Numbered from the stretch's first letter, positions 17,007-18,059 are shown. The stretch is DNA of 64,000 bases from Escherichia coli (GCF_002854065.1 NZ_CP024147.1); one strand, 5' to 3'. Notes: generated by a model not told the origin, from the sequence alone. A program made the numbers and translations.

Positions 17007-18059
17007 GTGAACATATATATCGGGTGGCTTTTCAAATTAATCCCTTTAATTATGGGCTTGATTTGTATCGCGTTAGGTGGCTTTGTGCTGGAAAGTTCAG
17101 GGCAAAGCGAGTATTTCGTCGCGGGTCATGTGCTGATTTCTCTGGCAGCCATATGCCTGGCATTATTCACTACCGCATTTATTATCATTTCGCAGCTCAC
17201 GCGCGGCGTTAATACGTTTTACAATACATTGTTCCCCATTATTGGCTATGCGGGGTCAATTATCACCATGATATGGGGTTGGACACTGTTAGCAGGTAAT
17301 GATGTGATGGCAGACGAGTTTGTCGCCGGCCATGTTATTTTCGGCGTTGGTATGATTGCCGCCTGTGTATCGACAGTGGCAGCGTCATCCGGTCACTTTC
17401 TGCTCATTCCTAAAAACGCAGCGGGGAGCAAGAGCGACGGAACTCCGGTGCAGGCTTATTCTTCATTAATCGGTAATTGCCTCATTGCCGTTCCCGTGTT
17501 ACTCACCCTGCTCGGTTTCATTTGGTCTATTACGCTGTTACGTAGTGCCGACATAACTCCGCATTATGTCGCCGGTCACGTATTGCTCGGGTTAACCGCA
17601 ATCTGTGCCTGTCTAATTGGCCTAGTTGCCACAATCGTCCATCAAACACGTAATACGTTTTCAACGAAAGAGCACTGGCTGTGGTGTTATTGGGTTATTT
17701 TTCTCGGCTCAATCACGGTGCTGCAGGGCATATACGTCTTAGTCAGCTCCGATGCAAGCGCCCGACTGGCTCCCGGCATTATTCTCATTTGCCTCGGAAT
17801 GATCTGTTACAGCATATTCTCAAAAGTCTGGCTACTGGCACTGGTCTGGAGACGTACCTGTTCGTTAGCCAACAGAATACCGATGATTCCCGTCTTCACC
17901 TGCCTGTTTTGCCTTTTCCTGGCATCGTTTCTTGCGGAAATGGCGCAGACCGATATGGGATATTTTATTCCTTCGCGGGTTCTGGTCGGTTTGGGAGCGG
18001 TATGCTTTACGTTGTTCTCAATCGTTTCAATATTAGAAGCGGGTTCTGCTAAAAAATAA
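17007..18059 (+). CDS. yhiM: inner membrane protein YhiM
   Basis: GTG start at 17007 preceded by GAGGAG; product MNIYIGWLFKLIPL...; three internal repeats of (Y/E)(F/Y)VAGHV. Confidence 0.8.
   Translation: MNIYIGWLFKLIPLIMGLICIALGGFVLESSGQSEYFVAGHVLISLAAICLALFTTAFIIISQLTRGVNTFYNTLFPIIGYAGSIITMIWGWTLLAGNDVMADEFVAGHVIFGVGMIAACVSTVAASSGHFLLIPKNAAGSKSDGTPVQAYSSLIGNCLIAVPVLLTLLGFIWSITLLRSADITPHYVAGHVLLGLTAICACLIGLVATIVHQTRNTFSTKEHWLWCYWVIFLGSITVLQGIYVLVSSDASARLAPGIILICLGMICYSIFSKVWLLALVWRRTCSLANRIPMIPVFTCLFCLFLASFLAEMAQTDMGYFIPSRVLVGLGAVCFTLFSIVSILEAGSAKK

Follow-up and report, generated by a model that had tools for sequence, protein, structure and literature searches.

The yhiM gene of Escherichia coli occupies positions 17007–18059 on the plus strand of the window, by which we mean the whole 64,000-nucleotide stretch of DNA analysed here (NZ_CP024147.1), and encodes a product of 350 amino acids; the RefSeq coding sequence has identical coordinates. 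A longer in-frame open reading frame runs from ATG 16908 to 18059 and would specify 383 amino acids, but the first-pass annotation of this DNA had judged that start probably too long and had preferred GTG 17007, on the grounds of a strong ribosome-binding site. It was right in both respects. RefSeq uses the same GTG, GAGGAG precedes it with a spacer of 6 nt, the aligned Met-Asn is the N-terminus in 61 of 61 homologues (none of which carries an N-terminal extension like that of the longer frame), and Tramonti et al. mapped the transcription start site (TSS) by primer extension 22 nt 5' of the GTG, at window position 16985 (PMC6604978). Both ATG 16908 and ATG 16965 lie upstream of the mapped TSS and are therefore outside the mRNA. 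Since GTG 17007 matches both RefSeq and the published TSS, the start codon is established knowledge and not a new result. The features of the locus are collected in Table 1. The -35 element reads CTGAAA here, against ATGAAA as printed in PMC6604978, where a terminator stem-loop after yhiM is also described. A pattern scan picked out neither the published promoter, because it fits fewer than 9 of 12 positions, nor the terminator; RNA folding confirmed the latter.

Table 1. Features of the yhiM locus and of the YhiM repeat units, in window coordinates (aa, residues of YhiM; AF2, AlphaFold2)
Feature	Position	Strand	Basis or remark
Upstream in-frame extension with ATG 16908 and ATG 16965, not translated	16908..17006	+	TSS; homologue N-termini
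yhiM promoter, published	16950..16985	+	-35 at 16950-16955, -10 TTCAAT at 16973-16978, TSS A at 16985 (PMC6604978)
Shine-Dalgarno GAGGAG	16995..17000	+	Sequence; same assignment in PMC6604978
yhiM CDS	17007..18059	+	GTG start, TAA stop; ORF list, Pfam PF10951, RefSeq
Hairpin unit 1 (aa 1-66; TM1 outer, TM2 inner, as proposed)	17007..17204	+	hhalign; AF2 helices 3-30, 34-64
Motif copy 1, YFVAGHV (aa 36-42; His41)	17112..17132	+	Sequence
Cys50 codon, first of five equivalent Cys	17154..17156	+	Nine unit-profile positions after the His position
Hairpin unit 2 (aa 67-138; TM3, TM4)	17205..17420	+	hhalign; AF2 helices 70-95, 102-130
Motif copy 2, EFVAGHV (aa 104-110; His109, the most conserved His, 91%)	17316..17336	+	Sequence
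Cys120 codon	17364-17366	+	Unit alignment
Hairpin unit 3 (aa 145-216; TM5, TM6)	17439..17654	+	hhalign; AF2 helices 153-178, 184-214
Motif copy 3, HYVAGHV (aa 186-192; His191)	17562..17582	+	Sequence
Cys200 codon	17604-17606	+	Unit alignment
Hairpin unit 4 (aa 219-283; TM7, TM8), missed in the first pass	17661..17855	+	AF2 helices 225-247, 251-280
Degenerate motif copy 4, RLAPGII (aa 253-259; Gly257 kept, Ile258 at the His position)	17763..17783	+	hhalign register
Cys267 codon	17805-17807	+	Unit alignment
Hairpin unit 5 (aa 284-350; TM9, TM10), missed in the first pass	17856..18056	+	AF2 helices 293-312, 317-347
Degenerate motif copy 5, YFIPSRV (aa 319-325; Arg324 at the His position)	17961..17981	+	hhalign register
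Cys333 codon	18003-18005	+	Unit alignment
Intrinsic terminator hairpin and U-run 3' of yhiM	18076..18117	+	RNA fold -21.2 kcal/mol, z = -3.4

Divergent from yhiM, an open reading frame of 557 amino acids lies at window 15035–16708 on the minus strand. In the RefSeq record of an identical strain this frame is a shorter DUF4049-domain protein, equivalent to window 15035–16624, and its start at TTG 16708 is therefore probably too long as well. The yhiJ/yhiK/yhiL genes (DUF4049), upstream of yhiM in the window, are absent from the uropathogenic strain CFT073. The CFT073 allele of YhiM (L002 29210–30262) differs from that of the window at 34 of 350 residues (90% identity), with no difference in the AG-His motifs or the ring of cysteines considered below.

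The start codon result touches a published claim, namely that YhiM of uropathogenic E. coli carries a copper-binding 'MXXXM motif', which needs an alternative upstream start. In CFT073 the RefSeq start ATG of yhiM aligns with the GTG of the window (L002 29186–29222, corresponding to window 16995–17012), and an in-frame ATG 12 nt upstream would give MGFKM-NIYIG. This MGFKM seems to be what the mBio 2024 study (PMC11005409) calls the 'N-terminal MXXXM copper motif', and CFT073 YhiM has it only when translation begins at the upstream ATG. Within the 12 nt concerned, ATGGGGTTTAAA, lies the sole Shine-Dalgarno-like sequence (GGGG) for the conserved yhiM start; a deletion of 'XXXM' would thus cost the gene its ribosome-binding site as well as its native start, and may do no more than lower YhiM expression.

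YhiM belongs to the Pfam family PF10951 (DUF2776), which it matches with E = 1.1e-158 and 528.5 bits against a cut-off of 26.1, over its full length (residues 1–347 of the 348-position profile); the E. coli protein is the reference member of the family and does not differ from it. As expected of the family, it has about 350 residues, ten transmembrane helices and cytoplasmic termini, as judged from the AlphaFold2 model and from positive residues in the even-to-odd loops; the ten-helix topology with both termini in the cytoplasm is already published (PMC6604978; PMC11005409, via Daley 2005). Homologues are present in Proteobacteria, Actinobacteria and Bacteroides, all of the divergent members tested are DUF2776 proteins, and the literature adds Clostridium (C. 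perfringens in PMC6604978). NCBIfam has no model for the family. A megablast search with window positions 16700–18300 recovered the yhiM region from 4,266 of 5,426 complete E. coli genomes, and in those 4,266 the yhiM DNA is 95–100% identical. Some family members are longer (P0126, 479 aa; P0177, 445 aa; P0199, 495 aa; P0387, 463 aa), with 100–150 residues beyond the 350-residue core; at E up to 0.01 Pfam adds no other domain to P0126, P0177 or P0199, and P0387 has a precomputed match to PF05697.

Published phenotypes of yhiM vary between strains and involve acid, temperature and osmolarity, GABA, and copper via Cpx. The gene belongs to acid-response regulons. Its deletion reduces GABA export at pH 5 by about 50% and its overexpression increases GABA export, without significant variation from pH 2.5 to 5.5 in the overexpressing cells, while the homologue of C. 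perfringens lies between gadC and gadB (PMC6604978). A yhiM mutant also emerged from a screen aimed at copper importers: CFT073 cells without yhiM are more copper-resistant and contain less copper, an effect of CpxAR activation and copA induction; the resistance requires cpxA/cpxR and copper import persists without YhiM. A yhiM mutant of K-12 has no copper phenotype. In nine homologue gene neighbourhoods we found no conserved partner and no copper genes. An acid- or ammonia-related context was seen at one of these nine loci only, that of Crenobacter caeni (L008 1–8500), where a complete urease cluster, two CrcB genes included, adjoins a divergent yhiM homologue, which is followed by a gene of the formate/nitrite-transporter family.

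The first-pass annotation had drawn attention to three segments of YhiM led by a (Y/E)(F/Y)VAGHV motif, and all three strings occur exactly as quoted: YFVAGHVLISLAAICLALFTT (aa 36–56, nt 17112–17174), EFVAGHVIFGVGMIAACVSTVAA (aa 104–126, nt 17316–17384) and HYVAGHVLLGLTAICACLIGLVAT (aa 186–209, nt 17562–17633). Their recurrence is beyond chance. VAGHV is found three times, and any 5-mer occurring at least three times was seen in just 23 of 50,000 composition shuffles (0.05%); Smith-Waterman comparison of the hairpin units that hold the segments gave z = 7.5–12.5, scores that 0 of 300 shuffles reached. The segments had been said to recur at regular intervals, as an internal triplication. The repetition stands, but the spacings of 68 and 82 residues are only roughly regular (a cytoplasmic loop of 22 residues follows TM4), and the duplication, though real, is five-fold rather than three-fold.

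Evidence for five units comes from an alignment (A1) of 62 full-length homologues, 52–62% identical to E. coli YhiM, which was cut into five hairpin-sized blocks that were then compared as profiles by hhalign. All ten unit pairs align in register over both helices and the intervening turn, with scores of 21.6–85.1, against column shuffles with a mean of about 10, a standard deviation of about 2 and a maximum of 25.6, and against 8–13 for reversed units; each of the ten scores exceeds every one of its own global, local and reversed column shuffles. The two units overlooked previously are no exception, unit 4 scoring 36–50 against units 1–3 (shuffle maxima about 23 or less) and unit 5 scoring 22–46 against units 1–4 (shuffle maxima about 17 or less). 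The motif thus has a shared register of YFVAGHV, EFVAGHV, HYVAGHV, RLAPGII and YFIPSRV, of which the last two are the degenerate copies of units 4 and 5, and the three histidine-bearing segments are the best-preserved copies of a five-fold, two-helix hairpin repeat.

That the resemblance might reflect nothing but the chance similarity of hydrophobic transmembrane helices, which share a common composition, could be entertained from single sequences, where Smith-Waterman z is 5.6–12.5 in seven of the ten unit pairs but 1.6–2.5 in the other three. This reading is refuted by the profile shuffles, by alignments that keep register across both helices and the turn, and by the 5-mer shuffle test, and we consider its probability negligible. 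At the DNA level, a repeat search in yhiM found nothing beyond short stretches at the motif codons, 75% identical over 24 nt; the copies being alike there alone, the duplication is ancient, not recent. When the unit profile was compared with 1.84 billion representative proteins, it matched only 264 clusters. Nearly all full-length matches (about 320 amino acids or more) are hit in five stretches, two in four and none in more, and 249 sequences have five domains, with no sequence exceeding that number. Shorter matches look like gene fragments, and the 150 matches listed comprise DUF2776 proteins and fragments only, with no free-standing single-hairpin relative among them.

Conservation within the repeat does not centre on histidine. 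A conserved histidine in each unit had been proposed, and this holds for units 1–3 among close homologues (52–62% identical), in which the A, G, H and V of the three motifs are at least 90% conserved; it does not hold for units 4 and 5, and in units 1–3 it is less strong across the family. In 249 five-unit sequences (effective number about 80), histidine accounts for 47% of residues at this position in unit 1 (Pro 34%, Arg 8%), 91% in unit 2 and 78% in unit 3, while unit 4 has Tyr, Cys, Phe or Ile and unit 5 has Arg in 87%. The preceding position is Gly in 94%, 97%, 98% and 92% of sequences in units 1–4, and Ala (76%) or Ser (21%) in unit 5. The cysteine is present in 96%, 96%, 100%, 99% and 97% of sequences in units 1–5 respectively, and in a stacked alignment of 140 units from 28 species the sole invariant column is that of Cys50/120/200/267/333. 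The histidines of YhiM are, hence, less widely conserved than the neighbouring glycine and the ring of five cysteines. Every short periplasmic turn (aa 29–35, 96–104, 178–186, 248–253 and 311–318) contains acidic residues (E29, E35; D99, D103, E104; D181; D249; E311, D316), directly above the His/Arg collar, and at the outer mouth of the barrel proposed below they would form an acidic rim overlying a basic ring.

Structure prediction, which the first-pass annotation had suggested as a check, placed the repeats within two-helix hairpins, five of them rather than three. With alignment A1, AlphaFold2 gave a model of YhiM (pLDDT 91.9, pTM 0.92) with ten long helices paired as five hairpins, in which the periplasmic turns comprise 3–6 residues and the cytoplasmic connections are longer. 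A chain of five consensus units, folded with no alignment (pLDDT 74), had its matches among open helical solenoids of designed origin and not among closed barrels; the unit by itself does not, then, reproduce ring closure.

In structure, the YhiM model comes closest to designed single-chain helical barrels; its nearest counterparts among membrane proteins found in nature are the SLAC1/TehA anion channels. Foldseek returned designed parallel barrels only, with TM-scores of 0.38–0.5, and no natural match at an E-value of 0.001 or better; a profile search of PDB sequences with the YhiM family found nothing at E up to 10. The designed barrels and toroids (8qag, 8qah, 8qai, 8qkd, 8u1a, 5cwq, 6xr1) are soluble and artificial, mostly have 6–8 inner helices and bear no sequence relationship to YhiM. 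Their designers had remarked on the AlphaFold model of YhiM, which they describe as 'based on five central helices' and as the closest natural look-alike of their barrels; P44741 and YhiM share one of their supplementary tables, while P50537 is listed in a different one (PMC11288890). The likeness to SLAC1/TehA is architectural: the model has ten helices in five tandem hairpins, arranged with quasi-five-fold symmetry in what would be two layers, and its hairpin turns are on the same, external side. We take P44741 to be the TehA protein of Haemophilus influenzae and P50537 to be Mae1 of Schizosaccharomyces pombe.

Beyond architecture, the two families differ. YhiM has no Pfam match to PF03595 (TDT) at E up to 1, whereas TehA itself matches this family at 6.6e-44, and the YhiM profile aligned to E. 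coli TehA by hhalign has a probability of 0.1%. The repeats of YhiM, unlike those of SLAC1/TehA, are recognisable in sequence, and we identified no counterpart in YhiM of the gating phenylalanine. In the SLAC1/TehA family the odd helices form the pore (PMC3172217, PMC11260165), while in YhiM, on indirect evidence, the inner helices appear to be the even ones. A simple SLAC1/TehA homologue, or a circular permutation of one, would not have this order, and on the strength of the hhalign comparison YhiM looks like an independent solution.

The placement of the motif-bearing even helices in an inner five-helix barrel, the reverse of SLAC1, is drawn from conservation statistics and coevolution. Mean conservation is 0.69–0.77 in the even helices, compared with 0.51–0.66 in TM1/3/5/7, and the even helices have more small residues and fewer aromatics than the odd. 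The helical periodicity of conservation is weak in even helices (0.5–2.2), as opposed to the one-sided pattern of odd helices (2.7–3.5). Direct coupling analysis was carried out on pairs of adjacent units, with covariance pooled within unit classes to remove the confounding effect of unit identity, using 131 and then 249 sequences (summed Meff about 390, a modest depth). An analysis of plainly stacked units had been discarded as confounded by unit identity; the pooled version gave the same top pairs. Adjacent units showed in-register couplings between even helices (45–46, z 8.2; 41–40, z 4.2; 42–42, 53–53 and 59–60) and couplings of the even helix of one unit with the odd helix of the next (51–12, z 5.8; 41–23), and the expected antiparallel hairpin couplings were recovered (20–47, 21–51 and 6–64). 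Couplings in the control set of non-adjacent units were weaker, with a maximum z of 4.7; this strongest pair, 57–42, is physically not sensible and shows the noise level of the analysis, but the more interpretable even-even pairs in the control, 42–45 and 42–42, fit residues that face each other across a lumen.

Taken together, these results lead us to propose that YhiM is a two-layer toroid of five hairpins with an even-helix barrel, seams marked by histidines, and a possible solute conduit at its centre, an explanation to which, as a whole, we assign a probability of about 0.6. What is directly supported is the repeat in five copies, the pattern of conservation, the model of ten helices paired in hairpins, and the fold neighbours. 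YhiM would comprise five tandem copies of a transmembrane hairpin of about 65–72 residues, each consisting of an outer odd helix with a single conserved stripe, an acidic periplasmic turn of 3–6 residues, and an inner even helix. The inner helix would open with (F/Y)-V-A-G-[His]-V and, nine unit-profile positions later, carry the invariant cysteine in the middle of the membrane. All five even helices would run parallel from periplasm to cytoplasm as a central barrel wrapped by the five odd helices, giving a single-chain, quasi-five-fold, two-layer toroid with the architecture of SLAC1/TehA but the opposite radial order, and with no detectable sequence relationship. The three segments first recognised would be the N-terminal halves of inner helices 1–3, and the motif the periplasmic collar of the barrel, where the small Ala-Gly pair may permit the close approach of adjacent inner helices. 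The residue after the glycine would pack on the glycine of the next unit, head-to-tail round the ring, through contacts His41–Gly108, His109–Gly190, His191–Gly257, Ile258–Ser323 and, closing the ring, Arg324–Gly40. Rather less firmly, the barrel may be a conduit for small solutes, given the reported export of GABA, and the His/Arg collar beneath the acidic turns may act as a pH-responsive clasp or gate rather than as a single shared proton or metal site, although the flat GABA export between pH 2.5 and 5.5 gives pH gating no support in that range.

A coordinating site for protons or metals had been suggested for the histidines from the beginning, and in its fullest form this would have the three histidines, with or without Arg324, converge on one proton-relay or Cu/Zn site at the periplasmic mouth, as the functional core of the protein. 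Their strong conservation in close homologues is consistent with such a site, as is the fact that each lies at the corresponding place in parallel helices, two turns in from the periplasmic end; so are the membership of yhiM in acid-response regulons and the effects of its loss on copper in CFT073. However, the unit 1 histidine is replaced by Pro, Arg or Leu in much of the family and that of unit 3 is kept in 78%, and the copper phenotype has been traced genetically to CpxAR activation. In the following unit, the histidine column covaries with the motif glycine (Gly40 and its equivalents) and with the outer helix; on a helical wheel this column and the inferred lumen stripe (positions 42, 46, 49, 53, 56 and 60) are about 110 degrees apart. 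From this coevolution we infer that each histidine sits at its own seam between neighbouring hairpins and not on a common axis; the evidence is indirect, but it leaves a single shared site unsupported and, in our judgement, quite unlikely. In pores built on rings of ligands, such as the histidine ring of M2 or the methionine rings of CTR1, every repeat or subunit supplies the same ligand, directed towards a common axis; the histidines of YhiM depart from this pattern because they occur in three of five units only (47/91/78%) and because coevolution places them at the seams.

The cysteines, by comparison, are found in five of five units, and a five-cysteine ring at mid-membrane, fed by the histidine collar, could be imagined as a path for thiophilic metals, especially Cu(I), making YhiM a route of copper entry. 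No other repeated position is as conserved, and replacement by Ala, Ser or Gly, which a pure packing role would permit, is not seen; the origin of the yhiM mutant in a copper-importer screen and its lower copper accumulation point the same way. Yet the helical wheel suggests that the cysteine lies about 70 degrees off the lumen stripe, on the side that faces the previous inner helix, and so at a seam. Copper uptake still takes place in the mutant, its resistance needs cpxA/cpxR, the K-12 mutant lacks the phenotype, and copper genes are found in 0 of 9 neighbourhoods. We hold this reading to be unlikely, though still a contender.

It might also be argued that the repeat is purely architectural, forming a closed hydrophobic barrel, and that YhiM is a scaffold or sensor which damps CpxA, its effects on GABA and copper being indirect. 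The inferred lumen stripe is indeed hydrophobic (Val42, Leu46, Ile49, Leu53, Thr56, Ile60 and the corresponding residues of other units), the Cpx response is switched on when YhiM is lost, and pleiotropic, strain-dependent phenotypes with no conserved operon partner found would suit such a role. Against this, GABA export rises on overexpression and is halved on deletion, the closest natural architecture, SLAC1/TehA, is that of a channel, and strongly conserved charged or polar residues inside the helices (Arg324, Lys273, Ser269 and Ser272) would be unusual in an inert scaffold. This alternative seems to us unlikely, but deserving of consideration. As to function within the five-hairpin toroid, we tentatively favour, at roughly one chance in three, a conduit for small solutes whose periplasmic collar is positively charged and titratable.

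Homopentameric two-helix channels, for example MscL and the membrane domain of CorA, arrange five hairpins from separate chains about a central axis. YhiM would resemble them in having five two-helix hairpins around an axis, and by analogy this would suggest an ancestral homopentamer that was later fused into a single chain. The boldest form of the hypothesis, which we consider quite improbable as it stands, is that YhiM is a natural single-chain five-helix-barrel channel, independent of SLAC1/TehA and probably a fused homopentamer, in which the cysteine ring and the His/Arg collar provide a thiophilic-metal or pH-gated path. If true, YhiM would be a long-sought inner-membrane route of copper entry, or a channel for GABA release in mild acid, or both, in enterobacteria.

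Earlier publications already cover the yhiM gene, its start codon and the ten-helix topology, and the AlphaFold model with five central helices has been mentioned there briefly. In the searchable literature DUF2776 is named by two papers, and YhiM is paired with AlphaFold by three, among which the barrel-design paper (PMC11288890) is the only one concerned with the YhiM model; neither the DUF2776 family description nor the two papers naming DUF2776 mention an internal repeat, the AGH motif or the cysteine ring. This literature contains no account of the five-fold sequence repeat, of the Gly/His/Arg collar and invariant five-cysteine ring, or of the architectural kinship with SLAC1/TehA, with the order of layers apparently reversed. 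YhiM is widespread, occurring in Proteobacteria, Actinobacteria, Bacteroides and Clostridium, and its phenotypes (acid, GABA, heat and osmolarity, copper) are puzzling. It would be a second natural family with the rare five-hairpin architecture of SLAC1, apparently arrived at independently, and the sole natural look-alike of designed single-chain parallel helical barrels. Viewing YhiM as a five-fold barrel of hairpins singles out particular residues, namely the Gly/His collar, Arg324 and the five-cysteine ring, and offers a structural frame for its strain-dependent phenotypes.
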